Shown piece by piece: positions 2,400-57,630 of a stretch of DNA of 64,000 bases. The first letter of the stretch is position 1, and the number at the start of each line of letters is the position of its first letter. Position numbers and translations under genes: made by a program. The notes under the pieces were generated by a model. The model saw nothing but the letters and a program-made list of their open reading frames with translations. It did no database searches and was not told the DNA's origin. This DNA comes from Candidatus Poseidoniaceae archaeon (GTDB lineage Archaea; Thermoplasmatota; Poseidoniia; Poseidoniales; Poseidoniaceae): positions 596,053 to 660,052 of the forward strand of contig CALSTM010000003.1 of NCBI GenBank assembly GCA_943789275.1. Direction: 5' to 3'.

Positions 2400-2870
2400 A
2401 TGAAATCACTCCTTCTTGCCGTGTTAATGGTCTCCATGTCCCTTTCTGTGGGCCTTGTGGAACTGAACAAAGCCCCTTGGCTTGTTGAAGACGGTGAAAG
2501 CGAACTTGAAGAGTTAAACAATCCCATGCACACAACCGCACCTTCGATTTCCTATTCCTCAAGCACACTCGCTCTTTCCAACAACACCGCTATGACGCCA
2601 GTGACAGCGACGAATTCAGGTGGTACGGTTGGAGTTCCGGTGGCAATAGAACTCAGTACCATCGATGAATGGCTGTCTTTAGCCCTTGATTCTGATGGAT
2701 ACAGGCATGTTTCCGCTGCCGACACCACCAGTAGTGATCTCATGTATGCGACCGACACCAGTGGGGCTTGGGTCAACATAACCGTTGATGCTCCAGGACA
2801 GGTCGGGGAATACAACTCAATCGCTGTTGATTCTGAAGACGTCGTGCATATTGCCTACTTCAGCCTATAA
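2400..2870 (+). CDS. N-terminal signal-peptide-bearing segment of giant surface protein 1. It is separated from the body by an apparent +1 frameshift at about 2865-2870.
   Basis: MKSLLLAVLMVSMSLSVGLVELN is an N-terminal signal-like hydrophobic segment. The segment ends with the repeat ...IAVDSEDVVHIAYFSL followed by a stop. The same repeat unit (..K..DLKYATC..) continues in frame +1 from about 2866. The upstream ORF-track start (2274) is TTG and lacks a signal peptide. Confidence 0.5.
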   Translation: MKSLLLAVLMVSMSLSVGLVELNKAPWLVEDGESELEELNNPMHTTAPSISYSSSTLALSNNTAMTPVTATNSGGTVGVPVAIELSTIDEWLSLALDSDGYRHVSAADTTSSDLMYATDTSGAWVNITVDAPGQVGEYNSIAVDSEDVVHIAYFSL

Positions 2871-13177: not shown

Positions 13178-13501
13178 ATGAGAGGGGACGCCGTAGGTAT
13201 GCCTCTCTTTCAATCGGGCCACTCTGCTGTGTTGAACAGAAAGTCCATCAAGTCAATTTGGCTTGCAGTTTTGATGGTTTCAATGTCGCTTTCTGTTGGC
13301 ATCGTTGAATTGAACCGGACACCGTTGGTAGATGCCATTGGTGTAGCAAGTGTTGGAGCAGGCTGTGCGTTTATCACTCGGGCCAGCGGCGAGGCAATCT
13401 ATGTCGATCCGGTCAACGGTTCGGATGCTTGGGACGGCACCTGGTCGTGTCCAAAAGCAACACTTTCCGATGCTCTGAACGACTCCATTTCAGAACGATG
13501 A
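13178..13501 (+). CDS. N-terminal signal-peptide segment of giant locus 2. It ends at a stop and continues in frame +1.
   Basis: The signal peptide ...KSIWLAVLMVSMSLSVGIVELN matches that of gene 1. YVDPVNGSDAWDGTWSCPKATLSDALNDS is the usual N-terminal lead-in of right-handed beta-helix proteins. The continuation (ND)EIVLYSGRYHENVTVDG lies in the next frame from about 13479. Confidence 0.5.
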   Translation: MRGDAVGMPLFQSGHSAVLNRKSIKSIWLAVLMVSMSLSVGIVELNRTPLVDAIGVASVGAGCAFITRASGEAIYVDPVNGSDAWDGTWSCPKATLSDALNDSISER

Positions 13502-19500: not shown

Positions 19501-22500
19501 GCAACACGACCACGACCCTCAGCAATAATTTCCTAACCGCAGGTGGAACGCACCTGCTCGGCATTGATTCGGGCGATCAAGGCGAGATGGTCGTTGTCTA
19601 TGCACATAACGATACGAGTTCCGCCAGTGGCACCTACAGCTTGGCCATGATGTACCGCTGGGGCGGAACATGGACTGAAACCATTCTCGACACCGGCACA
19701 GATACGGGGTATCATCCATCGGTTGCCATCGATCGTCAGGGCGCAATCCACATCGCCTACATCGATGATCACAACGACGAACTTCGTTATGCTACCAATG
19801 CTTCAGGGTCGTGGGTCTTCACAACCTTGGGAAGTTCAACCTACGACAACGATGACGGACGTGGAACGGCGATTGTCGTTCACCCAATTACAGATGCCGT
19901 TCACATTGTGACAACGATCAACGATAACACCTATCGTGATTTACAATATCACACCAATGAAAGTGGTTCTTGGGTGAATGAGACCATCACCAATACGCTC
20001 TCGGATGAAGGTCATGACCCTGCTATGGCGATGGATGGCGACGGAAATCTCCACGTCGCTTACTATTGCGACGATGGTTGTAGCGATTTGCGTATGTCCA
20101 GCCGAATCAATGGCGTTTGGCAAAACGAAACGGTTGCGAGCACCCTTAACATTGGAAACGATCCTGACATTGCCATCGATTCACAGGGTACGATTCACAT
20201 CGTGTCACAGTACCTCAATACCAAACGTATCTATCTCCATTCCGGTACGCCAGGAAGTTGGACTGAACAAACAGGGCTCTCAGGAGGAAACGCTCACTGG
20301 CCTGTGGTATCGGTTGATTCAAATGATGCTGTCCACATCTCCTATCATTTTGGAAACACACAAAAAGATGTGATGTACATGACCAACGCTTCTGGCTCTT
20401 GGTCAACAGCGTCCATGATTGAAGGATACGGTGGCTGGGGCAGTGAAATGGTCATCGATGCCAACGATGACATCTTCATTCCGAACGTCGCTCCAGGAAT
20501 AACAGAGATCCAATTGACCACAGTCAAGGGTTCAGGACAAGGTTTGACAGCCCGTCCAACCTATGACATTGCACCGATGCTTCCTGACGGTTTGATCATG
20601 AACTGGCGTAATGGAACCATTTCGGGCACACCAACAGAAGCCCTTGCCAACACAACCTTCACCGTCACAGTCACCGCCCTCGGAACCACCACCACATCGG
20701 CCTTCACGCTCTTCATCACCGGCGCTCCCGGTGCTATCGCTTACAGCGACATCTCAGGGACAAAGGGTACGGCCATCACCCCCGTCACACCGTCCATCAC
20801 CACCAACGGCACGACCGGTAGCGTGACCTCGTGGACCATCAGTCCAACTTTGCCAAGCGGGCTTTCATTCGGTACGAGCAATGGAACGATTTGGGGTACG
20901 CCAACAGTGGTTGTTTCCGGAGCGGTGTTCACGATTTGGGCGAACAACTCGGTCGGGTCCAAGTCAACAACGGTCAACATCACTGTCAATGATGAAGCAC
21001 CTGACATCTCTTACAATCCAGACTGGTTTGTTTTGACCAAGGGCACTGTCATGTCACCAACAGCGACACCAACCAATACAGGTGGTGCGATTCCATCGGG
21101 CATTGTCGACTCTGGAAGCAGTCTTGGTAGTCACACCTCAATCGCCCTTGATTCGAATGGATACAAGCATATTTCCTACTATCATGCCACCAATAAGGAC
21201 CTCATGTATGCAACCGATAAGAGCGGTTCTTGGGTCACCACTTCGATTGATACATCTGGAATTGTTGGCCATTACACCTCCATCGCCATTGATTCCAATG
21301 ATGATGTTCACATTTCCTACTATGATTCCACCAATGGCGACCTCAAGTATGCAACCGATAAGAGCGGTTCATGGGTCACTACTTCGATTGACACCTCTGG
21401 AATTGTTGGCCATTACACTTCCATCGCCATTGATTCCAATGACGACGTGCACATTTCCTACTATGACACCACCAATGGCGACCTCAAGTATGCAACCAAT
21501 AAGAGCGGTTCTTGGGTCACCACTTCGATCGATACATCTGGGACTTCGATTTTTAGCTCTTACACCTCCATTGGCATTGATTCCAATGATGATGTTCACA
21601 TTTCCTACTATGATTACACCAATGGCGACCTCAAGTATGCGACCGATAAGAGCGGTTCTTGGGTCACCACTTCGATTGATACATCTGGAATTGTTGGCCA
21701 TGACACCTCCATCGCCATTGATTCCAATGATGATGTTCACATTTCCTACTATGATTACACCAATGGCGACCTCAAGTATGCAACCGATAAGAGCGGTTCT
21801 TGGGTCACCACTTCGATCGATACATCTGGAAATGTTGGCGCTTACACCTCCATCGCCATTGATTCCAATGATGATGTGCACATTTCCCACCAAGATTTCG
21901 GGAATGGCGACCTCAAGTATGCAACCGATAAGAGCGGTTCTTGGGTCACCACTTCGATCGATACCTCTGGAAATGTTGGCGCTTACACCTCCATCGCCAT
22001 TGATTCCAACGATGATGTGCACATTTCTTACTATCACATCACCAATACCGAACTCAAGTATATCGGTCTTGATTCTTCTTCGAATGTGCTTGGCTATTCG
22101 GTCAGTCCAGCCCTACCTGCAGGATTGAGTTTGGATTTGGGTACGGGTGAAATTTCAGGCACACCAACTGCGCTTTCAACCAACACGACATACACGATAA
22201 CGGTACGCAACTCTGGCGGTACTAACACAACGACGATCACAATCGAGGTTCTCGACCAGTTGCCGACCATTGCTTACTCGCCAGAGAACTTGACGCTGAC
22301 CAACAACACGGCCAGCACCGATTTGCCGCTGACTGCAACGGTCACGGGTTCGGGGACGATCACCTCTTGGGCGATCAACGCAACCTTGCCTGCTGGCCTC
22401 AACTTCGGAACCAGCAACGGTACGATTTGGGGCATTCCGACCGTGCTCCAAACAACGGCAACAACCTACACGGTTTGGGCCAACAACAGCGGTGGTTCCT

Positions 22501-23309
22501 CCTCAGCTACGGTGACCATCACGATCAACGACGAGGCACCAGGTCCATTCGAGTACAACCCAGAGAACAACACGCTGACGAACAACACCTACGTGCATCT
22601 TGAGCCTGACTTCATCAACATGACAACGGGCAACGGCAGTTCTTGGTCCACCGCACCAGCGGGTTATCAATTGACGAGAACTGATTGGCCGAATGAACCG
22701 TGCCTCAATCATACCTACAATGGCACAACTTATGTCTCATATAATTCCAAATTGCACGGTTACGGTATTGCCAACAACACGTTATGGCTCATCAACAATA
22801 CCATCCAAGGTGTCGGTTGTTACACGTACTCTAAATGGCCCTCAGGCACTGGTTACTCGGAAGGTCTTAGCCAAATGTACGGGACATCGCTGTATTTCAT
22901 TGGTAAAGATGGTTCGGATCGAAAGTTGTACGGCTACGGTATGGAAAATGAAACCGTTTGGGTGGAGAGTACTGCGGAACCCCATGTATGGAGCATGCTG
23001 GTTGACGATGTCATGTACTTTTATGGCGAAACGGGTAACAGCGGGTATGAACTCCACGGTCACAACCTGAGCAACGGCACCACTTGGATGCTGGACGATA
23101 TTTACTCTGGCTCAGGAAGTATCACTGGGCCGGCTCTAGGACAGAATTGGCCGGTCTTGGTGGGATCGACATTTGTGTTTGTGGCAGTCTTCAGTAACGG
23201 TAGTACCTACAGTCGTGAGACATGGGCGCACAACATCAGCAACGGGACATCTTGGCGCCTCTCAATCGTATATGATGCATACCACAGCTGGCGCTCAGGT
23301 GATTGGTGA
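13479..23309 (+). CDS. Main segment of giant locus 2. It contains a pectin-lyase-like right-handed beta-helix, a LamG/ConA-like lectin domain, Ig-like domains, RCC1-like repeats, YATDKSGSWVTTSIDTSG...IAIDSNDDVHISYYD propeller-like repeats, and kelch-like repeats.
   Basis: The open frame extends upstream of the listed TTG (13677) to a stop at about 13476. It shows PbH1-like beta-helix rungs (NNTVxxS..., NxIHDIIKYGARFD). The LamG-like block is WSVSVWFNASTHQHSVILGAFDDGG...RLYVDGQNVGSGS. RCC1 repeats lie at about 17470-18560. Seven tandem 135-bp repeats lie at about 21100-22080. Confidence 0.75.
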   Translation, partial: TTPFQNDEIVLYSGRYHENVTVDGKDNLLIRAADGARVVFDGTRSITEDLGGVWGAADSDGIQEVTLPVDGWQLFLAYEEQVPARWPNAQFSDETVFNRSYWAEGTLTGSNNAYTQGWLTDAGPETGVHTGLNETINATGLDPEGAIAVMNLGSFRSNSRVITDWNSANGTFAYDGTGVGWKTKHHAYFLEGKRELIDVDGEWWFNNAINRLHYKTPSGQNANNLDLRVKVQPFAMSVENSDGVTIQGLDFFGTTVNFNECDGCSFTNSTLEYPSTSKRGLGIAGESEDDRWMTRFYRSTNSFVDNISITNTDGGALEFQGSAGQSHNNTVNNSYFHAIDWSAADQKGLMVTIYEGGRDMYFTNNTVHLTGASSVLSIGDAPKVFYNEVWDVGHLQTDGAVVQIMQGEAPGAEVAHNWIHDIIKYGARFDAPIGEAGEGRNGTMHHNVIWNVTGGLMVKGDYHDVHNNTVFNSSDGKNDIIALTDGEINNKNSTFHRNAVDKMADHRSGSWSLYPLPAGTYWNNWNGYVNTTDTVWNQLVDPANYDFRPKTNSHLDNMSAGAYDAGVSNPWTAGISWTYTTPDAPVEGCMLDYADNYDADATLSDGSCSFASYTPPATLDLRLHLDPTNSSSYSGSGTNVADLSGFNNYGTVAAAGPTWDGDFTRFSYDGACTGSTPNLVCDEIEVSDSTSLRPGGNDWSVSVWFNASTHQHSVILGAFDDGGAAVDVGWAIRMRASGGIYANVGTTSNNSAAWTSEASIDTDRWYHVVLVADPGNTLRLYVDGQNVGSGSLSGSGALRNVSNSLFIASYNGGEYSQTFDGQVGSVMAFADALNATTINQIYNASKGVYSNTTTLSFPQSSPTLLLGQTYSFPMTVANGEITTSYSLTGTLPSGMNFESSNGTIWGTPTAAMSTTSYTVTANNSAGTYSTSFSLTSQHAAPYDLAYAPENMTLEKGTAMTTNTPSVSGGAITSWEINPSVPTGLSFSTSTGAISGTPYVLQTTATTYTIWANNSGGNASAQVNITINDEVPIISYSYDDITGTKSVAISPHSGPTTSGGTITSWEISPSPGSAFHFNSANGYISGTPGILLARTQYTIWANNSGGSSVAYVNVTINDAAPNALGYSPENMTLEKDTAMTPNLPSVSGGTITSWEISPSLPSGLTWGASDGKISGTPAVLQTTTVTYTIWANNSGGSDSAQVNITINDQLASATYPSTVEVSNDRAMTTVSPTVTGGAVISWVIVPSLSSGLNFGSSNGSIWGTPTGLLENATYTVYANNSGGSTSITFTLGLNWTLTPSAEGAFITRNSSIASDITWEWDYDPLEAQNLSLVTGEWNTCALDSNQNVFCWGRNGNGQIGNGQTGTSGCGTSGHKCKDIPTATNDLGSDVISLAFGHQHACGLLDTGAVKCWGRNNAGQLGTSGGDKDTPQTINLGSGRTATSIYAGGHYTCAILDDASVKCWGENGNGQLGIGSNSNANTPTTINTLGSGRTAISLATAMSAVCALLDDGSVKCWGASANGQLGNGGTSSNLKSPPASAINLGTGRTAKAITGGESHFCAILDDDSIKCWGNGFNGKLGTGTTSHRSTPTSTSGSFATGRYAVAIDAGYDHTCAILDNGQLTCWGSDSDGQLGNGATTGTKSSIQSTTVTLGSGRTAISLSAGGEHTCAQLDNGQLKCWGNRADGQVGDNGNFNNPSDRTSPSSVSNNNHGGYTYLNTGVMPSSAVTGATCEISPSLPTGLSLTAGTCTITGTPTATASNATYTIWANVSGTSYSGQIWLEVGLNAPDISYSSSTYTYTKDIEIFTLNPTNVGGEVTTWAINATLPSGLTFETSNGTIWGTPDTITASTTYTVWANNSADSDSFTITFTVNDATPNFYYGSASGGGAHTLVLYLDQTMNPLTPTQASGGGAITSCSSSPSLPSGLSLSSTCVLSGTPDATATGAFYTITGTNTGGSDTASLYIEIRSYGGTLSVTPSNTEGSVNSSISDITMSYAHQISNYGWTSGVSNTTTTLSNNFLTAGGTHLLGIDSGDQGEMVVVYAHNDTSSASGTYSLAMMYRWGGTWTETILDTGTDTGYHPSVAIDRQGAIHIAYIDDHNDELRYATNASGSWVFTTLGSSTYDNDDGRGTAIVVHPITDAVHIVTTINDNTYRDLQYHTNESGSWVNETITNTLSDEGHDPAMAMDGDGNLHVAYYCDDGCSDLRMSSRINGVWQNETVASTLNIGNDPDIAIDSQGTIHIVSQYLNTKRIYLHSGTPGSWTEQTGLSGGNAHWPVVSVDSNDAVHISYHFGNTQKDVMYMTNASGSWSTASMIEGYGGWGSEMVIDANDDIFIPNVAPGITEIQLTTVKGSGQGLTARPTYDIAPMLPDGLIMNWRNGTISGTPTEALANTTFTVTVTALGTTTTSAFTLFITGAPGAIAYSDISGTKGTAITPVTPSITTNGTTGSVTSWTISPTLPSGLSFGTSNGTIWGTPTVVVSGAVFTIWANNSVGSKSTTVNITVNDEAPDISYNPDWFVLTKGTVMSPTATPTNTGGAIPSGIVDSGSSLGSHTSIALDSNGYKHISYYHATNKDLMYATDKSGSWVTTSIDTSGIVGHYTSIAIDSNDDVHISYYDSTNGDLKYATDKSGSWVTTSIDTSGIVGHYTSIAIDSNDDVHISYYDTTNGDLKYATNKSGSWVTTSIDTSGTSIFSSYTSIGIDSNDDVHISYYDYTNGDLKYATDKSGSWVTTSIDTSGIVGHDTSIAIDSNDDVHISYYDYTNGDLKYATDKSGSWVTTSIDTSGNVGAYTSIAIDSNDDVHISHQDFGNGDLKYATDKSGSWVTTSIDTSGNVGAYTSIAIDSNDDVHISYYHITNTELKYIGLDSSSNVLGYSVSPALPAGLSLDLGTGEISGTPTALSTNTTYTITVRNSGGTNTTTITIEVLDQLPTIAYSPENLTLTNNTASTDLPLTATVTGSGTITSWAINATLPAGLNFGTSNGTIWGIPTVLQTTATTYTVWANNSGGSSSATVTITINDEAPGPFEYNPENNTLTNNTYVHLEPDFINMTTGNGSSWSTAPAGYQLTRTDWPNEPCLNHTYNGTTYVSYNSKLHGYGIANNTLWLINNTIQGVGCYTYSKWPSGTGYSEGLSQMYGTSLYFIGKDGSDRKLYGYGMENETVWVESTAEPHVWSMLVDDVMYFYGETGNSGYELHGHNLSNGTTWMLDDIYSGSGSITGPALGQNWPVLVGSTFVFVAVFSNGSTYSRETWAHNISNGTSWRLSIVYDAYHSWRSGDW
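21100..22080 (+). repeat. About seven tandem 135-bp (45-aa) repeats, YATDKSGSWVTTSIDTSGxVGxYTSIAIDSNDDVHISYYDxTNGDLK. The units are BNR- or propeller-like.
   Basis: The periodicity is visible in both the protein and the nucleotide sequence. Several copies are nearly identical. Confidence 0.8.
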
Positions 23310-23508
23310 TGTGGCTTACTTTGGTCAACAAACATCTTCTGGAATTTTCTCGCTCTATGCTTACAATGCTTCAAATGCGACGCTATGGATGGTTTCAGGG
23401 AGTAATGCTAATCGTGGTGTTGCTGTAACTATTGACGGTGTATTGTATGGTAGTCGTGGTCTACAGTTCTCTTCCAGGTGGCTCTACACTCTGGGCGCAC
23501 AACCCTAA
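23173..23508 (+). CDS. Short frame-shifted fragment of giant locus 2 carrying kelch-like LYAYNASNATLWMVSG repeats.
   Basis: It continues the xLWAHNxSNGTxW repeat family seen at the end of the preceding ORF and the start of the following one. Confidence 0.35.
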   Translation: MCLWQSSVTVVPTVVRHGRTTSATGHLGASQSYMMHTTAGAQVIGDVAYFGQQTSSGIFSLYAYNASNATLWMVSGSNANRGVAVTIDGVLYGSRGLQFSSRWLYTLGAQP

Positions 23509-25891
23509 CAACGGAACCTCGTGGGTAATTGCTCCAAACATTGCTCCAGGAATTAATCAGGCTTTTGAGATAGCCGGAACGCTGTATTACAGGGGCGGTT
23601 TATCTTCCAGCCAAGAAGTATGGGCGTATGAGCCGACCAATACGACGGCATGGAAGGTCACGGACATCACGCTCCCTCAATCCGGCCTCTTCTTTGCCCT
23701 TGGTGACCTCATTTACTTTACAGGCAGCAACGCCACGACCAGTGGTGTTTGGGCGCACAGCACTTCCAACCATTCGACCTGGTTTGTGAGCAATCCATTC
23801 TCAAGCAACGCCGCCACCGCGGTTGCTGTTGTGAACGGTACGCTTTACTTGGGTAATTCTGGAATGGCTGCTCATCAGCCAACCTCCATCAACTACCGGA
23901 CGAACACGGGTGGACCCGTCACCTCGTGGGCGATCAACGCCAGCCTGCCGAGTGGCCTTTCCTTCAGCACGACCAACGGCAGCATCTACGGCACGCCGAC
24001 CGAGCTGTGGACACAAACGTCTTACATGGTCTGGGCCAACAACAGCGGTGGCTCAACCGTGGCCTACCTCAACATCACCGTGGTTGACGAGTTACCAACG
24101 CTTTCGTATTCTCCAGAGAACTTGACACTGACCAAGAATCAGACAAGCACCGATTTGCCACTGACTGCAACGGTCACGGGTTCGGGGACGATCACGTCCT
24201 GGGCCATCAGCCCAGTACTGCCTAGCGGTTTGTCCTTTGGAACGAGCAACGGAACGATTTGGGGCACTCCGACGGTCTTGCAGACCAGTCCAGTGACCTA
24301 CACCGTTTGGGCGAACAACAGCGGAGGTTCATCCTCAGCCACGGTCAACATCACTGTCAACGACGAAGCGCCTGACATCTCTTACAATCCAGACTGGTTT
24401 GTTCTTACCAACAATACGGCCATGTCTCCGATTGCAACACCGACGAATTCTGGTGGTGCGATTCCGTCAACCGTCATCGATTCAACTGGCAATGTTGGAG
24501 AAGATACTTCCATCGCCATTGATTCAAATGGAAACAGGCACATTTCCTACTACGACGAAACTGGTTCCGACCTCAAGTATGCGACGGATAAAACTGGTTC
24601 TTGGGTCACCGTTTCCGTTGACACAACAGGGTTTGTGGGAACTGACTCTTCTATCGCCATCGATTCCAACGATGCAGTCCACATTTCCTACTATGATTAC
24701 ACCAATAGCGACCTCAAGTACGCCACTTGTTCAAGCGGTTGCACAATCGCAAGCAATTGGGACGATGTCTCCGTTGACACAACAGGGTTTGTGGGAACTG
24801 ACTCTTCTATCGCCATCGATTCCAACGATGCAGTCCACATTTCCTACTATGATTACACCAATAGCGACCTCAAGTACGCCACCTGTTCAAGTGGTTGCAC
24901 AACCGCAAGCAACTGGGACGATGTTTCCGTTGAAACAACAGGTGTCGTGGGATCTTTCACTTCTATCGCCATCGATTCCAATGATGCAGTCCACATTTCC
25001 TACTATGATTCCACCAATAGGGATCTCGAGTACGCCACCTGTTCAAGTGGTTGCACAACCGCAAGCAATTGGATCACTACTTCGGTTGAAACGACAGGTG
25101 TTGTGGGATATTACACTTCAATCGCCATCGATTCAACCGATGCAGTCCACATTTCCTACTTCGATAATACCAATGATGACCTCAAGTACGCCACATGTTC
25201 AAGCGGTTGCACAACAGCAAGCAATTGGGTCGATGTCTCCGTTGACATAACAGGTCATGTGGGACGTTACACTTCCATCTCCATCGATTCTAACGATAAT
25301 GCCCACATTTCCTACTATGATACCACCAATAGCGATCTCAAGTACGCCACCTGTTCAAGCGGTTGTACAACCGCAAGCAATTGGGACAAGGTCTCCGTTG
25401 ACACATCAGGTAGTGTGGGATATTACACTTCAATCGCCATCGATTCCAGCGATACTATCCACATTTCCTACTTCGATAATACCAATGACGACCTCAAGTA
25501 CGTCGTTCTCGATTCTTCTTCGAATATGTATGGCTATTCCATCAGTCCAGACCTGCCTGCTGGATTGAGTTTGAACTTTACAAGTGGCGAAATCTCAGGA
25601 ACGCCAACTGCACTATCAACCAACACGACCTATACTATTACAGTGAGAAACAGTGGTGGTGTGAACACGACCACGATCACAATCGAGGTTCTCGACCAGT
25701 TGCCGACCATTGCTTACTCGCCAGAGAACTTGACACTGACCAAGAATCAGACCAGCACCGATTTGCCGCTGACTGCAACGCGTCATGGGTTCGGGGACAA
25801 TCACGTCCTGGGCCATCAGCCCAGCTTTGCCAAGCGGTCTTATCCTTTGGAACGAGCAACGGAACGATTTGGGGAACGCCGACATCATTGA
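23432..25891 (+). CDS. Frame-shifted fragment of giant locus 2 containing kelch-like repeats, Ig-like domains and YATCSSGCTTASNW...IAIDSNDAVHISYYD repeats.
   Basis: The ORF ends by running out of frame inside an Ig-like unit. Comparing 25781-25800 with its intact upstream copy at 24161-24180 shows 1-nt insertions. Confidence 0.55.
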   Translation: MTVYCMVVVVYSSLPGGSTLWAHNPNNGTSWVIAPNIAPGINQAFEIAGTLYYRGGLSSSQEVWAYEPTNTTAWKVTDITLPQSGLFFALGDLIYFTGSNATTSGVWAHSTSNHSTWFVSNPFSSNAATAVAVVNGTLYLGNSGMAAHQPTSINYRTNTGGPVTSWAINASLPSGLSFSTTNGSIYGTPTELWTQTSYMVWANNSGGSTVAYLNITVVDELPTLSYSPENLTLTKNQTSTDLPLTATVTGSGTITSWAISPVLPSGLSFGTSNGTIWGTPTVLQTSPVTYTVWANNSGGSSSATVNITVNDEAPDISYNPDWFVLTNNTAMSPIATPTNSGGAIPSTVIDSTGNVGEDTSIAIDSNGNRHISYYDETGSDLKYATDKTGSWVTVSVDTTGFVGTDSSIAIDSNDAVHISYYDYTNSDLKYATCSSGCTIASNWDDVSVDTTGFVGTDSSIAIDSNDAVHISYYDYTNSDLKYATCSSGCTTASNWDDVSVETTGVVGSFTSIAIDSNDAVHISYYDSTNRDLEYATCSSGCTTASNWITTSVETTGVVGYYTSIAIDSTDAVHISYFDNTNDDLKYATCSSGCTTASNWVDVSVDITGHVGRYTSISIDSNDNAHISYYDTTNSDLKYATCSSGCTTASNWDKVSVDTSGSVGYYTSIAIDSSDTIHISYFDNTNDDLKYVVLDSSSNMYGYSISPDLPAGLSLNFTSGEISGTPTALSTNTTYTITVRNSGGVNTTTITIEVLDQLPTIAYSPENLTLTKNQTSTDLPLTATRHGFGDNHVLGHQPSFAKRSYPLERATERFGERRHH

Positions 25892-25942
25892 TGACGCTCA
25901 AGACGTTCACAATTTCGGCGAGCAATAGCGGCGGTTCAGTCA

Positions 25943-27331
25943 ATGCAACCGTTAACATCACTGTCAATGATGAAGCCCCTGATATCGTATTCTCCAGACT
26001 GGTTTGTTCTCACCAACAATACGGCCATGTCGCCAACGGCTACACCAACCAATTCAGGTGGTGCAATCCCGTCTGGAATTATTGCTGAACCGTCGCAAGT
26101 TGGCTCTCAGTATTCCGAGGGGAGATACAATTCTATTGCCGTTGATTCGAATGGCGTCGCACATGTTGTTTATTTTGGCAACTATAATTCACAAACGTTG
26201 TATTACGCAACCAATGCCAACGGTTCATGGGTTACGACTGTGCTCAAGAATCAGAATGGTATAACCAACGGAGCATCAATTGTCATTGACTCTAACGATA
26301 CCATCCACATCAGTTATTCACACAGGTTTAGCCAATACAGTATGGGGAATAACCTCTATTACTCGACTTGTTCTTCATCTTGTTCATCTGCATCATCATG
26401 GAGTGGTGGTTTGGTCGTCGGAGGTGGGTATTACAACGATATTGCGATCGATACCAACGGTACATTGCACATCTCTCACTGGACAGGTTCCTCGCTCCAG
26501 CATTCGACCTGTTCCTCTTCTTGTTCAACAGCATCGTCTTGGACCACAACCTCGGTTACTTCGGTGACCCAACAGATGAGGATTTCAATGACAACCGATT
26601 CCAACAACAGTATACACATCCTTTACTCAGAGGGCTACCCAACAAGAGACCTCAACTATGCGACCTGCTCTTCTGGATGCACATCGTCATCATCGTGGTC
26701 TACAGTTGAGCTCAATGCTTCCAGCACTTCCACTTTTATAGGGGATCAATCCATTGCTGTTGATTCAAACAACGGTATTCACATAACATATCAATTCAAT
26801 ACTAACCTGACCTATGCGACCTGTTCTTCTTCATGTACATCAGCATCATCATGGACCAATACCACGGTTCCCCCTGTCAAGGCTTTATACGGCCTCGGGG
26901 AAATCGCCATTGATTCCAACGACCATCTCTACATCTCGTATGCAAAGGGTTCTTCCAATGCAGCATCTAAACTAACCTATGCGACCTGTTCTTCTTCATG
27001 TACATCAGCATCGTCGTGGACCAACACCACGTTTGACACAAATGGCGGTAATCAACGGTCAATGGCTCTTGATTCCAACGACCGTGTGCACATCTCCTAT
27101 CACTCAGGTAGTACGGATAAATCCCTTAGGTACCTCGCAGTTGAACCATCATCGATTGTTTATGCTTACTCCATCAGTCCAGCCTTGCCTGCAGGGTTAA
27201 GTTTGGAAATCAGCACAGGTGAGATCTCAGGAACGCCGACTGAGTTGTCGACCAATACAACATACACGATTACGGTACGCAATGCGGGGTGGCACAAATA
27301 CGACGACCATCACCATCGAAGTCAACGATGA
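25943..27331 (+). CDS. Frame-shifted fragment of giant locus 2 with YATCSSSC...IAVDSNNGIHITY propeller-like repeats and an Ig-like domain.
   Basis: The same repeat family continues. The end runs out of frame at ...TYTITVRNAG|WHKYDD, whereas intact copies read ...RNSGGTNTTTITIEV. Confidence 0.55.
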   Translation: MQPLTSLSMMKPLISYSPDWFVLTNNTAMSPTATPTNSGGAIPSGIIAEPSQVGSQYSEGRYNSIAVDSNGVAHVVYFGNYNSQTLYYATNANGSWVTTVLKNQNGITNGASIVIDSNDTIHISYSHRFSQYSMGNNLYYSTCSSSCSSASSWSGGLVVGGGYYNDIAIDTNGTLHISHWTGSSLQHSTCSSSCSTASSWTTTSVTSVTQQMRISMTTDSNNSIHILYSEGYPTRDLNYATCSSGCTSSSSWSTVELNASSTSTFIGDQSIAVDSNNGIHITYQFNTNLTYATCSSSCTSASSWTNTTVPPVKALYGLGEIAIDSNDHLYISYAKGSSNAASKLTYATCSSSCTSASSWTNTTFDTNGGNQRSMALDSNDRVHISYHSGSTDKSLRYLAVEPSSIVYAYSISPALPAGLSLEISTGEISGTPTELSTNTTYTITVRNAGWHKYDDHHHRSQR

Positions 27332-27458
27332 GGTCCCGACAATAGCGTACTCGCCGAACGATTTGGACCATGACCAATAACACGGCAAGCAGCGACCTTC
27401 CGCTCTCGCCGACCATCACAGGTTCGGTGAAATCACGTCGTGGGCCATCAACGCCATC

Positions 27459-30400
27459 TTGCCAGCGGTCTGTACCTTCGAGACCAGCAACGGTACCATT
27501 TGGGGAACACCGACCGAACTGTGGACGCAAACGGCCTACATGGTCTGGGCCAACAACAGCGGTGGGTCCGCCGTCGCCTACCTCAACATCACCGTAGTTG
27601 ACGAACTACCAACGATTGCTTACTCGCCGAACGATTTGGATTTGACCAACAACACGGCAAGCAGTGACCTTCCGCTCTCGCCGACCGTGACAGGTTCTGG
27701 TGAATTTACGTCGTGGGCCATTAACGCAAGTCTTCCGAGCGGACTTACCTTCGAGACCAGCAACGGAACCATTTGGGGAACACCGACCGAACTGTGGACG
27801 CAAACGGCCTACATGGTCTGGGCCAACAACAGCGGTGGGTCCGCCGTCGCCTACCTCAACATCACCGTAGTTGACGAACTACCAACGATTGCTTACTCGC
27901 CGAACGATTTGGATTTGACCAACAACACTGCTTCGAGCGATCTTCCACTTTCGCCGACCGTGACAGGTTCTGGTGAATTTACGTCGTGGGCCATTAACGC
28001 AAGTCTTCCGAGCGGACTTACCTTCGAGACCAGCAACGGAACCATTTGGGGCACACCGACCGAACTGTGGACGCAAACGGCCTACATGGTCTGGGCCAAC
28101 AACAGCGGTGGCTCAAGCGAGGCCTACCTCAACATCACCGTAGTTGACGAACTACCAACGATTGCTTACTCGCCAAACGACTTGGATTTGACCAACAACA
28201 CGGCAAGCAGTGACCTTCCACTCTCGCCGACCGTGACTGGTTCTGGTGAATTTACGTCGTGGGCCATTAACGCAAGTCTTCCGAGCGGTTTGACTTTCGG
28301 TACGAGCAACGGAACAATTTGGGGCACACCGACCGAACTGTGGACGCAAACGGCCTACATGGTCTGGGCCAACAACAGCGGTGGCTCAAGCGAGGCCTAC
28401 CTCAACATCACGGTCAACGATCAAATGCCAACGCTTTCGTATTCACCTGCCAACCTCACGCTCTACAAGAACACCGCCAGCAGTGATTTGCCGTTGAACG
28501 CCACGCTGACCGGTCCTGGAGAGATCACTTCGTGGACCATCGCACCCGGTTTGCCGAACGGTTTGACCTTTGAGACAAGCAACGGAACGATATGGGGCAT
28601 TCCAACACAGCGTATGACCACCACACAGTTCACGGTCTGGGCCAACAACAGCGGTGGGTCCGCCGTCGCTTACCTCAACATCACGGTGCTCCACGAAGCA
28701 CCGATGTTCAGCTATTCATCCTACAACTTGACGCTGGTCAACAACACGGCCATGACTGCAATGGGTGCGCCGATTACGGGTGGCGACGTCACATCGTGGG
28801 AAGTTGAACCGGCTTGGCCAACAGGTCTCTATTTAGGGTCCTTATATGGAACAATTTGGGGAACGCCAACCGTGGTTCAAAACATGACCATGTACCAGAT
28901 TTGGGGCAACAATTCAGGTGGCTCTCACTCTGTCTTCATCAACATCACCGTCGATGACCGAGCACCTTCGTTCACCTACAACCCAGAAAACCTCACCCTG
29001 ACCAACAACACGGTCAGCACTGACCTACCGCTTGTACCAACGGTTTCGAATACTGGAGATGCTCCAACAGGTTGGGTCTTGATGGGCACCTTGCCTGCAG
29101 GTCTCAACTTTGGCACCAACAACGGAACCATTTGGGGTACGCCAACCGAGCTATGGACGACCACAAATTACACCGTATACGGGAACAACACCGGCGGTTC
29201 GTTCAATGTGAGCATCAACATTACGGTCAACGATCAGATGCCAACGCTTTCGTATTCTCCAGAGAATTTGACATTCTACAATGATACTGCCAGCAGCGAC
29301 CTTCCACTTTCGCCGACCATCACCGGTTCAGGCGAGTTTGTATCATGGGCCATCAGTCCATCAGAGCCAAGCGGTCTTTCCTTTGATACTTCGAACGGAA
29401 CGCTCAGTGGAACGCCAACTGAACTGCTGACACGTACAATGTTCACGATTACGGCGACCAACACCGGTGGAACAGCAACAGCGTACATCAACATCACAAT
29501 TGTTGACCAAGTGCCGACGATTGCGTACTCGCCAAACGACTTGAGCATGACCAACAATACGGCGAGCAGTGACCTACCGCTTTCGCCAACCATCACTGGT
29601 TCAGGTGAGGTTGTGTCTTGGAGCATCAGTCCATCAGTGCCAAGTGGTTTGGCCTTTGATACTTCAAACGGAACGCTCAGCGGCACGCCGACTGAATTGC
29701 AGACACGGACAATGTACACCATCACAGCAACAAACACCGGTGGGACAGCAACAGCGTACATCAACATCACAATTGTTGACGAAGTGCCGACGATTGCGTA
29801 CTCGCCAAACGACTTGAACATGACCAACAACACGGCAAGCATTGACCTTCCACTTTTGCCGACCATCACCGGTTCAGGCGAGTTCGTATCGTGGGCCATC
29901 AGCCCATCAGAGCCAAGCGGTCTTTCCTTTGATACTTCGAACGGAACGCTCAGCGGAACGCCGACTGAATTGCTGACACGGACAATGTACACCATCACAG
30001 CAACAAACACCGGTGGAACGGCAACAGCCTACATCAACATCACAATCGTTGACGAAGTTCCGACGATTGTCTACTCACCAAACGATTTGAACATGACCAA
30101 CAACACTGCCTCGCTCGATCTTCCGCTCTCGCCAACAGTGACCGGTTCTGGCGAGTTCGTGTCCTGGGCCATCAGCCCTTCAGTGCCAAGCGGTTTGGCC
30201 TTCAGCACCTCAACAGGTGTGCTCAGTGGAACGCCGACAGAATTGCTGACACGTAGTATGTTCACGATTACGGCGACCAACACTGGTGGCTCAAGTATCG
30301 CCTACATCAACATCACCATTGTTGACGAGGTGCCGACCATTGCTTACTCGCCAAACGACTTGAGCATGACCAACAATACGGGGAGCAGTGACCTTCCACT

Positions 30401-30521
30401 TTTGCCGACCATCACCGGTTCAGGTGAGTTGTGTCTTGGGCCATCAGTCCAGCAGTGCCAAGCGGTCTTGCGTTTGACACCTCGACAGGTGTGCTCAGTG
30501 GAACGCCGACTGAATTGCTGA
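27459..30521 (+). CDS. Frame-shifted fragment of giant locus 2 consisting almost entirely of tandem 91-aa Ig-like (He_PIG-like) domains.
   Basis: The listed start is TTG inside a repeat. There are more than 10 consecutive LPTIAYSPNDLxxTNNTASSDLPLSPTxTGSGExxSWAIxxSxPSGLxFxTSNGTxxGTPTEL units. The end runs out of frame within a unit (TGSGELCLGPSVQQC...). Confidence 0.55.
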   Translation: MPAVCTFETSNGTIWGTPTELWTQTAYMVWANNSGGSAVAYLNITVVDELPTIAYSPNDLDLTNNTASSDLPLSPTVTGSGEFTSWAINASLPSGLTFETSNGTIWGTPTELWTQTAYMVWANNSGGSAVAYLNITVVDELPTIAYSPNDLDLTNNTASSDLPLSPTVTGSGEFTSWAINASLPSGLTFETSNGTIWGTPTELWTQTAYMVWANNSGGSSEAYLNITVVDELPTIAYSPNDLDLTNNTASSDLPLSPTVTGSGEFTSWAINASLPSGLTFGTSNGTIWGTPTELWTQTAYMVWANNSGGSSEAYLNITVNDQMPTLSYSPANLTLYKNTASSDLPLNATLTGPGEITSWTIAPGLPNGLTFETSNGTIWGIPTQRMTTTQFTVWANNSGGSAVAYLNITVLHEAPMFSYSSYNLTLVNNTAMTAMGAPITGGDVTSWEVEPAWPTGLYLGSLYGTIWGTPTVVQNMTMYQIWGNNSGGSHSVFINITVDDRAPSFTYNPENLTLTNNTVSTDLPLVPTVSNTGDAPTGWVLMGTLPAGLNFGTNNGTIWGTPTELWTTTNYTVYGNNTGGSFNVSINITVNDQMPTLSYSPENLTFYNDTASSDLPLSPTITGSGEFVSWAISPSEPSGLSFDTSNGTLSGTPTELLTRTMFTITATNTGGTATAYINITIVDQVPTIAYSPNDLSMTNNTASSDLPLSPTITGSGEVVSWSISPSVPSGLAFDTSNGTLSGTPTELQTRTMYTITATNTGGTATAYINITIVDEVPTIAYSPNDLNMTNNTASIDLPLLPTITGSGEFVSWAISPSEPSGLSFDTSNGTLSGTPTELLTRTMYTITATNTGGTATAYINITIVDEVPTIVYSPNDLNMTNNTASLDLPLSPTVTGSGEFVSWAISPSVPSGLAFSTSTGVLSGTPTELLTRSMFTITATNTGGSSIAYINITIVDEVPTIAYSPNDLSMTNNTGSSDLPLLPTITGSGELCLGPSVQQCQAVLRLTPRQVCSVERRLNC
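27480..28410 (+). repeat. About 3.4 near-identical tandem 273-bp Ig-like-domain repeats within giant locus 2.
   Basis: Spurious antisense ORFs recur at 27606, 27879 and 28152 (period 273) with nearly identical translations. The protein unit TSNGTIWGTPTELWTQTAYMVWANNSGGSAVAYLNITVVDELPTIAYSPNDLDLTNNTASSDLPLSPTVTGSGEFTSWAINASLPSGLTFE occurs three times. Confidence 0.85.
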
Positions 30522-30870
30522 CACGTAGCATGTTCACGATTACCGCAACCAACACCGGTGGAACGGCAACAGCGTACATCAACATCACAATCGTTGACGA
30601 ACTTCCAACGATTGCATACTCGCCGAACGATTTGATTATGACCAACAATACTGTTTCGAGTGATCTTCCGCTTTCGCCGACCATCACCGGCTCTGGCGAG
30701 ATTGTATCGTGGGCCATCAGCCCATCAGAGCCAAGCGGTCTTTCCTTTGATACTTCGAACGGAACGCTCAGCGGAACGCCGACTGAATTGCTGACACGTA
30801 CAATGTACACCATCACAGCAACAAACACAGGTGGGACAGCAACAGCGTACATCAACATCACCGTTCTTGA
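29230..30870 (+). repeat. About six tandem 273-bp Ig-like-domain repeats at roughly 90% identity. They span the frameshift at about 30430-30520.
   Basis: VPTIAYSPNDLxMTNNTASxDLPLxPTITGSGExVSWxISPSxPSGLxFDTSNGTLSGTPTELxTRTMxTITATNTGGTATAYINITIVDE recurs six times. Confidence 0.8.
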
Positions 30871-33121
30871 CATCATCCCAGAAATCTCCTATTCTCCGCC
30901 AGAAATGGTCCTTACAAACAACACTTCGATGGCCTATTGGTCTCCACTCAATGTCGGTGGGCCCGCTCTTTCATGGAGTATTTCTCCAGAACTTTCTCCA
31001 GGACTGTTGTTCGATTCCTCCAACGGTACAATTTCGGGACTACCAACCGAGGTTGCCCCACTGCTCAACTATACAGTCTCAGCGACCAACAGTGGAGGCA
31101 CTTCCGAGTTTAGCATCAACATCACCGTCGTTGGAAACGTTCCTCTCATTGAATATGTGCCGAGTGACATTGTTTTACTCAACAATTCGAGCATACTTGA
31201 TTTGTTACCGCTTTCTACCGGTGGAGCTGTGTTGGAATGGTCAATTACTCCGGAACTGCCGCTCGGCCTTACGTTTGACAACACATCTGGTCGCATGAAC
31301 GGTACGCCTGTTGAAGTGAGCAGCCAAACTCAGTATTCAGTGACGGTCATCAACGATGACGGATTTTTGACTGTTATGGTCAACATCACCGTTGAAGACC
31401 TTGTTTATGAGACCGCTCAAGGCGTTTTCAATGCCCTCAATAAATCGATGATTGAATCAATCGAGCCGCTTTCTTTCATCAGCGATTCAGTGTACGAGAT
31501 TCACCCTGCTCTTCCAACGGGTCTTTCGATTGGACCGTTGAACGGTACCATTTGGGGAGTTCCGAGTGAAGTCATGGAACTGAAGAGTTACACTGTGTAT
31601 TCGAATTCAAGTTTGTTCAATGACACCTTCATCATAATGCTGCGAGTTCTTGAAGACTCAGACAACGATTCCTTACCAGACGCTCTGCCTGTTGGATATG
31701 ATTTGATCGGAGAACTCATTGAAGATTTAGATGATGATGACGACGGTTATTCTGATTTGCTTGAAGACGAGTGTTTGAGCGATTCGCTTGACGATAATTC
31801 GATGCCCGGCGACCTTGACGGTGATTCCATTTGTGACCCGCTGGACAACGACGTTGACGGTGACGGACTGTTCAACCTCTTGGAAGATAGCAGTGGGAAC
31901 TACACATCAATCATTGATACGGGGACGAACCCACTGCTTGCAGATACTGATGGTGACGGCGTTTGTGATGGCCCACTCATCCCTGCGAACGGAGGCTGCA
32001 CAATGGGACCTGATGCCTTCCCGAATGACCCTTCAGCATTTGCCGATACCGATGGAGATGGTATGCCCGACGAAATGTTTGGAAATTCAACCAGTGAACC
32101 ACCGTTGATACTTGATTTGGATGATGATAATGATTTGTGGACCGACCTCCAGGAAGAGGAGTGCGGAACTGACCATCTTGACCAATACAGTGTACCTGAA
32201 GATGCAGACGGTGACGGAATCTGTAACAACCTCGATGAGCGAATGGATCTTTCTTTCAATCTCACCTATCCGATTACCAACCGAACACTCCTCTTGGATG
32301 AAGAGATGGAGCCTTTGCTTCCGAACATCACTGGAATTGGGGAAATTGAGACTTGGGAAATTGTTGGGGAATTACCTGATGGTTTGACCTTTGGATGGAG
32401 TCCAGCTCGAGACGCCCTTCTGGACGGAAGCATCCGAGGTACACCTACTGAACTGATGAACGCCACTGATTTCGTCATTTGGGCGAACAATTCGGGGTAC
32501 AGTCGATCGTTCATGATTACACTTGAAGTTTCATATGAATACTATCCAGAGGATAACAATGCGACACCGCAGGTATTGGGCTACATCTTGTGCCCGCTCT
32601 TTTTGTTGGTTTTGGTTGCCGTGGCTATGCTACTTGTTCCAAAGAAAAAAGTTGTCTTCAGAGATGCTCAGCCACAAAACACGTCCTCTCGTCCGAAGTT
32701 CAAGAGCGGTGCTGGAACTCGGGAGGACCCGTTCATTATCCAGACGCTTACCGGCGTTGAAGCCAGAACGTTTGTGCTTAGCAAGGAATCAATCACGACA
32801 AATGAAGTCTCACCTTCGAGCGTGTTTGACATTCGGGATGAAAACGAGGTCGAGAACGATGGCCGATTTAAAATCCTCAATCACCACAATGAATCTTCTT
32901 CTGTGGAAGAGGAATGGTCACCGGTTTCAAGACTCAACTCTGACCAAGAAGGTGTTCTCATCTACCAATTGGCTTTTGATGACCGTGACTCTGCTACGGT
33001 TCGTGAAAGTTCTTACACGACTTTGTTCAAGGTAGGGAACGAATCCGTGTATTTCCAATGGACGGTCAAGATGAAACCGAAGAAGAACCCGAGGAAGAAG
33101 TCGGGCAAGAAATCAAAGTGA
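30431..33121 (+). CDS. C-terminal segment of giant locus 2. It contains Ig-like domains, acidic TSP3-like Ca-binding repeats, a single TM helix, and a basic cytoplasmic tail homologous to the tail of giant protein 1.
   Basis: The acidic block DSDNDSLPD...DTDGDGVCDGPLIPANGGC...DADGDGICNNLD parallels the corresponding block of gene 1. The TM helix is LGYILCPLFLLVLVAVAMLLV. The tail shares GxGTxEDPF..., ...SVYFxWTVxxKP and the basic C-terminus KKNPRKKSGKKSK with gene 1. This locus has no terminal HhH-like domain. Confidence 0.65.
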   Translation: MSWAISPAVPSGLAFDTSTGVLSGTPTELLTRSMFTITATNTGGTATAYINITIVDELPTIAYSPNDLIMTNNTVSSDLPLSPTITGSGEIVSWAISPSEPSGLSFDTSNGTLSGTPTELLTRTMYTITATNTGGTATAYINITVLDIIPEISYSPPEMVLTNNTSMAYWSPLNVGGPALSWSISPELSPGLLFDSSNGTISGLPTEVAPLLNYTVSATNSGGTSEFSINITVVGNVPLIEYVPSDIVLLNNSSILDLLPLSTGGAVLEWSITPELPLGLTFDNTSGRMNGTPVEVSSQTQYSVTVINDDGFLTVMVNITVEDLVYETAQGVFNALNKSMIESIEPLSFISDSVYEIHPALPTGLSIGPLNGTIWGVPSEVMELKSYTVYSNSSLFNDTFIIMLRVLEDSDNDSLPDALPVGYDLIGELIEDLDDDDDGYSDLLEDECLSDSLDDNSMPGDLDGDSICDPLDNDVDGDGLFNLLEDSSGNYTSIIDTGTNPLLADTDGDGVCDGPLIPANGGCTMGPDAFPNDPSAFADTDGDGMPDEMFGNSTSEPPLILDLDDDNDLWTDLQEEECGTDHLDQYSVPEDADGDGICNNLDERMDLSFNLTYPITNRTLLLDEEMEPLLPNITGIGEIETWEIVGELPDGLTFGWSPARDALLDGSIRGTPTELMNATDFVIWANNSGYSRSFMITLEVSYEYYPEDNNATPQVLGYILCPLFLLVLVAVAMLLVPKKKVVFRDAQPQNTSSRPKFKSGAGTREDPFIIQTLTGVEARTFVLSKESITTNEVSPSSVFDIRDENEVENDGRFKILNHHNESSSVEEEWSPVSRLNSDQEGVLIYQLAFDDRDSATVRESSYTTLFKVGNESVYFQWTVKMKPKKNPRKKSGKKSK

Positions 33122-55334: not shown

Positions 55335-55353
55335 CGAATCACTCCACTTTTGT

Positions 55354-56880: not shown

Positions 56881-57010
56881 ACGCGCACCCTCTGCCGAAG
56901 CATTTTGTCACACGCTATGGCCGACTATAACTCTTGGGTGAAAACAACCCCAAAAACCGTTACCTGCGAGCAGAATATTTTCTCCACAATCTCCGTTTTG
57001 ACGGCAGAGT

Positions 57011-57568: not shown

Positions 57569-57630
57569 GCTTGAACGGCGCAGCCGAATGCTCATCAAGA
57601 TACCTCCTTTCAGTAGCCAAAGTTTGCGTT

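Follow-up and report, generated by a model that had tools for sequence, protein, structure and literature searches.

Organization of the giant locus

The 64,000-nucleotide stretch of Candidatus Poseidoniaceae DNA analysed here (the window) contains a row of consecutive ORFs on the forward strand that together span about 20 kb (Table 1). He_PIG repeats (PF05345) are present in every large ORF fragment of this giant locus, with E-values of 3e-69 to 5e-83, two of the fragments containing 10 stretches each; an NCBIfam search of the locus returned no informative family. The first-pass annotation had described the same domain families as continuing across at least five ORF boundaries, in different frames, between 23.3 and 30.5 kb. 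He_PIG and propeller-like modules do run through five boundaries in this interval; the statement about frames needs amending, since the ORF ending at 25891 and the one starting at 25943 share a frame.

Twelve edits of 1-2 bases convert the fragments into one ORF of 6,646 aa with zero internal stops, which is far more order than would be expected by chance. The reconstructed protein combines many significant He_PIG domains with an N-terminal hydrophobic segment and a C-terminal transmembrane helix, the profile of a He_PIG surface protein, and is rich in Ig-like domains and N-glycosylation sequons. Corrected junctions read, for example, ...LTATVMGSGTITSW..., ...VRNAGGTNTTTITIEV... and ...GSGE(V/F)VSWAISP....

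Table 1. Features of the giant locus and positions of the frameshift sites (window coordinates)
Feature	Position	Strand	Description
Reconstructed gene	13178..33121	+	N- to C-terminus: hydrophobic segment, beta-helix-like region, Laminin_G_3, He_PIG arrays, RCC1 propeller, 'DSNDxVHISY' repeat modules, ELW-like repeats, two 273-bp He_PIG arrays, Asp-rich Ca-binding-like repeats, TM helix and basic tail
N-terminal hydrophobic segment	13256..13306	+	IWLAVLMVSMSLSVGIV; inside frame-2 ORF 13178..13501, severed from remainder of gene
ORF	13677..23309	+	frame 3
ORF	23173..23508	+	frame 1
ORF	23432..25891	+	frame 2
ORF	25943..27331	+	frame 2
ORF	27459..30521	+	frame 3
ORF	30431..33121	+	frame 2
J0	13490..13499	+	extra base at ~13494 (tcaGaac), frame 2 to frame 3
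Paralogous post-propeller unit	22180..22260	+	100% identical to alternative 'allele' at 25620-25700 in several other assemblies
J1a	23284	+	extra A, CATACCACAGC vs CATACC-CAGC, frame 3 to frame 1
J1b	23458..23465	+	complex +GG/-G (net +1), frame 1 to frame 2
156-bp repeat module	24614..25502	+	'DSNDAVHISYYD...KYATCSSGCTTASNW', 5.7 copies
Hotspot J2	25600..26000	+	in window: +C at 25781, +1 at 25839-25843, -2 at 25984-25986
Hotspot J3	27100..27600	+	in window: +G 27286, +1 27368-27370, -1 27425, -1 27456, +1 27472-27473
He_PIG tandem array 1	27348..28411	+	273 bp, 3.9 copies, 93% matches
He_PIG tandem array 2	29284..30861	+	273 bp, 5.8 copies, 82% matches
Hotspot J4	30400..30550	+	in window: -1 at 30428-30430 (GAG-TTGTG)
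C-terminal transmembrane helix	32576..32641	+	LGYILCPLFLLVLVAVAMLLVP; then cytoplasmic tail with terminal KKNPRKKSGKKSK

Frameshift sites

The J0 frameshift lies outside the range of the first-pass annotation and cuts the N-terminus off the gene; homologs are uninterrupted at this point, reading ..SxSNDEIVLYSGRYHENV... Deleting a presumed extra C at 13496 also restores the frame, but the homologs place the extra base at the G near 13494. At J1a, P0103 and the TARA protein P0121 read DAYPA(G/I)AQVIGD, and at J1b the relatives read GVLYGSRSSSSLPGGSTLW. The J0, J1a and J1b indels are missing in L022/P0103, in P0121, which reads the whole of J1 in frame, and in other homologs.

Comparison of the broken Ig-like unit at 25781-25860 with the copy 1,620 bp upstream reproduced the single-base insertions reported previously, at 25781 and 25839-25843. 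The stop at 25889 results from the +1, +1 and -2 events within 25781-25986. The next junction, thought to require some three indels within 27285-27440, takes five, distributed over 27285-27475. It lies where the first 273-bp array begins, at a point where consensuses interleave two unit types. At J4, the window sequence is a chimera; its two parents, allele A (GAGGTTGTG) and allele B (GAGTTCGTA), both occur in frame in other assemblies. The repeats had been called near-identical; identity between a broken unit and its best paralog is no higher than 82-88%, and the array with 93% matches does not lie at the breaks. Nor is the damage confined to the repetitive gene between 23.3 and 30.5 kb, as had been proposed: besides J0, it includes J1a and J1b, both in non-repetitive sequence, and one frameshift at 2864 in the neighbouring giant gene (gene 1). 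The housekeeping genes of the window are intact, as originally stated, with full-length Pfam domain matches.

Comparison with independent assemblies

Ten contigs from different samples (ERZ10646xxx, 0.3-1.0 Mb) share a 20.6-kb region with the window, and coordinates were carried across assemblies by HSP-based maps. All ten seem to originate from a single project and pipeline and may therefore share biases. Overall identity to the window in the shared region is 99.5-99.7%, rising to about 99.97% outside three hotspots (25.6-26.0, 27.1-27.6 and 30.40-30.55 kb). The hotspots total 1,050 bp and hold 215 of the 223 indel differences and 480 of the 725 substitutions between the window and the ten contigs. 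In 11.8 kb of housekeeping DNA, the ten comparisons summed gave 2 indel and 31 substitution differences.

The set of hotspot indels is different in each assembly; at J2, for instance, those of the other assemblies differ from those of the window. Most window indels are private to it (e.g. 27286, 27425, 27473, 30430 and 2864). The sole widely shared indel is the extra base at 25839-25843 (cttaTcc), found in 10 of the 11 versions, which could reflect genuine mutation or systematic error. The module at 26010-27100 is in phase 0, 1 or 2 relative to the C-terminus in 3, 4 and 3 versions, respectively. Gene calls vary accordingly between assemblies: seven have a C-terminal ORF of 1,625-1,875 aa, showing that J4 is intact in them, and six have an N-terminal ORF of 4,091-4,241 aa, hence intact J0 and J1. 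Every one of the 11 versions has at least one break in J2 and at least one in J3.

Each hotspot occurs in at least two sequence versions, of which one reads in frame in other assemblies, another does so in an Illumina scaffold, and another is identical to a paralogous unit within the gene. Consensuses with a frameshift are chimeras that combine bases from these alternatives, position by position. At J4, where other assemblies have two in-frame alleles, the hybrids are the window (-1) and L014/L019/L020 (+1). At J3, the L012 allele equals the allele that is in frame in Illumina scaffold L004, with six spurious inserted bases added, and in L015-L019 two unit types are interleaved at the single-base level. 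In the left part of J2, the alternative allele is the one identical to the upstream paralogous unit (Table 1).

Short-read sequences provided a further comparison. The extra bases J2a and J2b are missing in one co-occurring strain contig and in four short-read MAG contigs, and J2 is in frame in L057, L024, L025 and L026. An intact ORF in related genomes, for which the first-pass annotation had suggested a search, was recovered in part: short-read MAG contigs of related Poseidonia species (with SPAdes- or MEGAHIT-type names) have open frames of 3,024-4,956 aa running uninterrupted through the orthologous module. Giant-gene frames are fragmented in SOLiD and nanopore+pilon assemblies. A scan of GTDB genomes yielded relatives at 80% identity or less only, and no exact match was found for the 896-aa and 3,435-aa ORFs of the window. 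No clean haplotype of the same population was found across J2 or J3, short-read contigs included; among the matches listed for same-population proteins across J3, there were only broken ORFs of the long contigs and structural variants. An exact-pattern scan of JGI metagenomes for short-read contigs across J1 gave no match.

Origin of the frameshifts

The region 13178-33121 very probably represents one intact giant cell-surface protein gene of a marine Poseidoniaceae (MGIIa), encoding about 6,650 aa, with the frameshifts being a consensus artefact. The window would be a metagenome consensus, probably from a long-read assembly, rather than the genome of one cell. The population would be heterogeneous inside both giant genes, with co-occurring strains carrying differing versions of particular He_PIG units and differing module numbers. 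Strain versions, along with paralogous units 80-93% alike, would have been merged by the assembler or polisher into a single sequence. At clusters of substitutions that distinguish two versions, majority voting column by column would retain bases of both, and the mixed-vote columns would generate spurious 1-2 base indels and, through them, frameshifts. Flye-type assemblers are documented to collapse strains into consensus contigs (PMC8302730), and the proovframe preprint (10.1101/2021.08.23.457338) names indels as a main source of the frameshifts seen in long-read assemblies. The reads were presumably mixed at the window's own sites as well, heterogeneity there being extrapolated from the other assemblies, and individual cells would carry an uninterrupted gene. 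Of the two causes offered by the first-pass annotation, consensus errors from collapsed repeats or strain mixture are the one borne out: the indel sets differ among the eleven versions, the errors are hybrids at sites with several versions, and close short-read relatives lack them and are in frame. The other, genuine decay or hypermutation, fared poorly, with no shared set of inactivating mutations, as detailed below.

Errors of the sequencing platform, random or systematic, left by weak polishing and involving no mixture of strains or paralogs, are an unlikely source of the whole pattern. They could explain isolated indels in non-repetitive sequence with no visible second allele (13494, 23284, 2864), as well as the isolated indels of other assemblies in giant gene 1 (6323 and 7535). 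However, homopolymers of three or more bases are present at only 1 of the 12 sites, the hotspots are also enriched in substitutions, with recognisable second alleles, and hardly any indels occur in any version of the adjoining 11.8 kb of housekeeping DNA, which indicates a very low base error rate. The indels at 13494, 23284 and 2864, at non-repetitive positions with no demonstrated polymorphism, may represent read error, mixture or private mutation.

We consider it quite improbable that the gene is a pseudogene, a giant adhesin gene decaying in the lineage by real frameshift mutations. Inactivation often hits large surface-protein genes, and both the interruption of J2 and J3 in every version and the extra base shared by ten of them are as decay would predict. 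Against this, the inactivating indels are mostly private to the window, the frame phases cover all three values, and the indels are clustered (5 in 190 bp) at spots of allele mixing. Moreover, the 6,646 corrected codons contain no nonsense substitution, and dN/dS is 0.14-0.54 versus four relatives, values compatible with very recent inactivation; even the module that separates J2 from J3 has a ratio of 0.36-0.54.

A biological switching of frames, whether by slipped-strand phase variation, programmed ribosomal frameshifting or hypermutation of the diversity-generating retroelement (DGR) type, is highly improbable. Frameshift-ended He_PIG ORFs are frequent among database entries of Poseidoniales giant genes, and the break sometimes directly follows a common GSGE(I/F)V motif, as in P0003, P0049 and J4 of the window. 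Nevertheless, the positions vary between assemblies of one population. Slipped-strand variation is contradicted by the site contexts, which contain neither homopolymer nor simple-sequence tracts, 11 of the 12 sites being in runs of two bases or fewer. Programmed frameshifting fits poorly with twelve assembly-variable sites, whose contexts were inspected, and with continuous short-read orthologs. As to a DGR, the variable hotspot sites show no adenine bias (A 36, C 30, G 38, T 40) and their variation includes indels and whole-unit swaps; no reverse transcriptase domain was detected among the Pfam-screened genes of the window or the precomputed gene calls of contigs covering about 24.3-59 kb. 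That the fragments are truly separate adjacent genes deserves next to no credence even though gene callers split the ORFs in every assembly, for the ORFs end inside He_PIG domains and their out-of-frame tails encode He_PIG in another frame, the fragments have neither signal sequences of their own nor stops at domain borders, and the orthologs are continuous.

Relation to known systems

The frameshift artefacts of strain-collapsed long-read metagenome assemblies (Strainberry, PMC8302730; proovframe, 10.1101/2021.08.23.457338) resemble the present case: small indels break ORFs in a consensus of several strains, and the errors vary by assembly and disappear in short-read or haplotype-resolved data. 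Unlike there, the errors described here lie almost wholly in narrow hotspots of two giant repeat genes, on a background otherwise error-free and nearly clonal, and are chimeras of alleles or paralogs, not homopolymer miscounts. The giant He_PIG proteins of Marine Group II (MGII)/Poseidoniales, such as that of CM001443, share with the reconstructed protein the He_PIG arrays and the 'DSNDxVHISY' propeller-like and ELW-like repeats, at 63-80% identity; the present copy differs in its reconstructed length of 6,646 aa and in carrying an RCC1 propeller, Laminin_G_3 and, at its C-terminus, a TM anchor. The gene of CM001443, which we take to be the MG-II genome of Iverson et al. 2012, is likewise split, into four overlapping frames. 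A literature search on the ERZ10646xxx assemblies and on giant or hypervariable MGII proteins returned nothing usable.

In otherwise clonal marine populations, hypervariable 'metagenomic islands' encode cell-surface proteins. The locus resembles such islands in its near-identical backbone across samples and in the focusing of variation in surface-protein genes; it differs in that the variable patches span only about 100-450 bp inside one gene and are obscured by consensus artefacts. Phase-variable adhesins governed by slipped-strand contingency loci provide another parallel, a large adhesin-like gene broken by frameshifts; here, in contrast, there are many sites, no repeat tract at any of them, and states irreproducible between assemblies. 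The module number and order of MGII giant genes vary between strains. Tentatively, in a population otherwise almost clonal across samples, the gene might have a few such patches with at least two deeply diverged in-frame alleles, along with whole-module deletion variants broken in paralogous He_PIG units. This would amount to mosaic, cassette-like variation in which repeat units and strains exchange sequence through recombination or gene conversion, perhaps driven by recognition by viruses or grazers. The data only hint that strain-level variation in these archaea is focused in few units of giant surface proteins.

If the frameshifts are a consensus artefact, the appropriate annotation of the locus is a single surface-protein gene of about 6,650 aa, rather than five or six fragments or a pseudogene. 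Comparing independent assemblies of one population can separate consensus artefacts from real mutations without recourse to reads. Out-of-frame He_PIG tails terminate many database proteins of Poseidoniales giant genes, including P0049 of the reference MG-II genome ("subtilisin peptidase"), and contaminate protein clusters and pseudogene counts.

Frame breaks along giant gene 2

Giant gene 2 (13178..33121) belongs, by the names attached to its homologs, to a Candidatus Poseidoniaceae (Marine Group II) archaeon. From 13677 onwards it is spread over six successive ORFs. He_PIG repeats (Ig-like domain, PF05345) are present in every large fragment; the first ORF of the series also encodes Laminin_G_3 and an RCC1 propeller, and the last ends in a transmembrane helix followed by a basic tail. 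Since the out-of-frame tail of each fragment continues as normal He_PIG sequence in the following frame, the first-pass annotation was right in its core observation that the same domain families cross at least five ORF boundaries in differing frames. Break sites were placed by aligning each broken unit to its best paralog and then to other assemblies. Twelve small edits restored a single 6,646-aa ORF with no internal stops and 203 N-x-S/T sequons. The J0 junction lies beyond the 23.3-30.5 kb range originally assigned to the damage; its extra base severs the true N-terminus, a separate 107-aa frame-2 ORF (13178..13501) containing a hydrophobic signal/anchor segment. Both of the insertions tabulated at 25781 and 25839-25843 fall within the Ig-like unit (25781-25860) for which single-base insertions had been reported. 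The repeats, described as near-identical, proved to be just 82-88% identical between broken units and paralogs, and J3, placed at 27285-27440 and thought to need about three indels, takes five.

Frame-break junctions (J) and ORF fragments of giant gene 2
Feature	Position	Strand	Description
J0	~13494	+	one extra base (tcaGaac), non-repetitive sequence
J1a	23284	+	extra A
J1b	23458-23465	+	+GG/-G, net +1
J2	25781; 25839-25843; 25984-25986	+	+C; +1; -2
J3	27286; 27368-27370; 27425; 27456; 27472-27473	+	+G; +1; -1; -1; +1
J4	30428-30430	+	-1
ORF, 3,210 aa	13677..23309	+	frame 3, first of six
ORF	23173..23508	+	frame 1
ORF	23432..25891	+	frame 2
ORF	25943..27331	+	frame 2
ORF	27459..30521	+	frame 3
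ORF	30431..33121	+	frame 2, last of series

Several modules (window 21133-22061, 24614-25502 and 26000-27100; gene 1 ~2700-3300) are built from ~47-52-aa repeats, 'DSNDxVHISYYDxTNxDLKYATCSSGCTTASNW'. As Pfam matches them only faintly (SBBP, BNR_4), they seem to belong to a little-described family of propeller-like repeats that is characteristic of the giant proteins of Poseidoniales.

Comparison with independent assemblies

Exact look-ups of adjoining housekeeping proteins located the genome region in many public assemblies. Ten long contigs (0.3-1.0 Mb) cover window positions 24274-44906 at 99.5-99.7% identity. They derive from different ENA analyses (ERZ10646082...ERZ10646689), bear Flye-style names (contig_N or scaffold_N) and probably share one pipeline. 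Three hotspots (25600-26000, 27100-27600 and 30400-30550; 1,050 bp in total) account for 215 of the 223 indel differences and 480 of the 725 substitutions; the 11.8 kb of downstream housekeeping DNA shows 2 and 31, respectively, summed over the ten comparisons. The hotspot indel pattern differs from assembly to assembly. A C-terminal ORF of 1,625-1,875 aa is uninterrupted across J4 in 7/10 assemblies. In six, the N-terminal ORF measures 4,091-4,241 aa and, judging by that length, begins at ~13.2 kb and spans J0 and J1. Measured against the C-terminus, the net phase of module 26010-27100 takes all three values (0, 1 and 2 in three, four and three versions, respectively), as expected of noise rather than inheritance.

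The sole indel difference outside the giant genes is at 39709, in a poly-G run adjoining the start codon of a GNAT-aminotransferase gene: contigs L016 and L017 have one more G there, so that the gene is called at 591 instead of 567 aa. About 20 kb downstream (52711-59331), a set of T2SSE/T2SSF genes for an ATPase and a membrane protein (archaeal type IV pilus or archaellum-like) is intact and is identical in other assemblies.

Hotspot alignments revealed at least two diverged sequence versions per hotspot, of which the frameshifted consensuses are hybrids. At J4, two alleles are in frame: GGT GAG GTT GTG TCT TGG (contigs L012, L015, L017) and GGC GAG TTC GTA TCA TGG (L013, L016, L018); the window reads GAG-TTGTG (-1), and L014, L019 and L020 read GAGGTTCGT (+1). 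At J3, L015-L019 are a base-by-base mix of a 'TFETSNGTIWGTPTELWTQTAYMVWANNSGG' unit and a 'SFSTSTGVLSGTPTELLTRSMFTITGTNTGG' unit; the version in L012 corresponds to the in-frame allele seen in L004, an Illumina scaffold, with six spurious bases inserted. The C inserted in the window at 25781 (J2) agrees with the ...ACGCTGTCA... form at that site in L016, L019 and L020. Five assemblies have an alternative sequence at 25620-25700, which matches a paralogous unit of the window itself (22180-22260) with 100% identity.

Whole-module variants occur in related contigs, with breakpoints coinciding with the hotspots. Protein P0103 and contig L022 (ERZ10646672 contig_3743, which represents a second strain in the sample that yielded main-population contig L020) lack ~24250-25870; the J2-J3 module (25.7-27.3 kb) is missing from proteins P0027 and P0228; in P0012 and L004, J3 runs directly into array-2-type units. 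Contigs L056 and L057 also show module-level structural variants, and one related-strain variant has far fewer 273-bp units. Together, the hybrids, the paralog-identical unit and the module variants indicate that co-occurring strains and paralogous repeats both contribute, bearing out the collapsed repeats or strain mixture initially suggested as a cause.

Independent evidence points to a continuous gene. The J2a and J2b extra bases are absent from L022 and four short-read MAG contigs, and the J1a and J1b indels from L022, P0103, TARA Oceans protein P0121 and three more distant orthologs. Five homologs read through J0 as ...SxS(N/D)DEI(V/I)LYSG.... SPAdes or MEGAHIT MAG contigs of related Poseidonia species hold uninterrupted 3,024-4,956-aa frames through the orthologous module, whereas the gene is fragmented in the SOLiD-based MG-II genome CM001443 and one nanopore+pilon MAG. 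Against four relatives, dN/dS is 0.14-0.54, the J2-J3 module included.

Origin of the frame breaks

Although the shattering does exist in the sequence, it is very probably an assembly consensus artefact, of whatever kind, and does not represent a biological feature. Judging from the sequences compared, the mechanism is likely to be a mixture of strains or paralogs in the consensus. The main doubts come from the interruption of all eleven versions (the window and the ten contigs) somewhere in J2 and J3, from the extra base at 25839-25843 common to 10/11 of them, from the pipeline that the comparison contigs probably have in common, and from single indels (13494, 23284, 2864) that stand isolated in non-repetitive surroundings with no second allele visible. 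It may be, though this is less likely than not, that the hotspots mark real mosaic alleles of a giant surface protein, and variants in its module number, in an archaeal population that is clonal elsewhere; this is the sole mildly novel reading left. A truly inactivated gene would be expected to show inactivating mutations in common among versions, along with some nonsense changes; neither was seen, which speaks against a pseudogene and against the decay or hypermutation entertained earlier. Only one of the 12 break sites falls in a homopolymer of at least three bases, and hotspot variable sites are evenly spread across A, C, G and T; these findings argue against homopolymer miscounting, slipped-strand phase variation and DGR mutagenesis.

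Other giant genes

Flye-type assemblers are described as collapsing similar strains to consensus contigs, and indels as a main reason why ORFs are interrupted when long reads are assembled (PMC8302730; proovframe). Out-of-frame He_PIG tails are found in many database Poseidoniales giant-gene proteins (P0001, P0002, P0003, P0019, P0043, P0049, P0103, P0241); thus, the problem is widespread. In the reference MG-II genome (CM001443.1, 414269-435819), the ortholog occupies four overlapping frames, and a fragment named 'conserved putative subtilisin peptidase' (P0049) ends in such a tail; the split probably reflects an artefact of this type, here within a reference record.

The N-terminus of giant gene 1 (ORF 2785..13092) is also broken: a frame-3 ORF with MKSLLLAVLMVSMSLSVG... 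runs into the gene (region 2274-2870). The window's extra C at 2864 is not in assemblies L058 and L059, where separate indels occur at 6323, 6329, 6379 and 7535; L058 has ~100 additional bases at window 4539, presumably a scaffold gap. Just upstream of the window start, long contigs contain further large ORFs of the He_PIG/TSP3-like type, a third set (1,161, 1,168 and 987+ aa; L058 11785-20831), so that giant surface-protein genes are clustered in this part of the genome.
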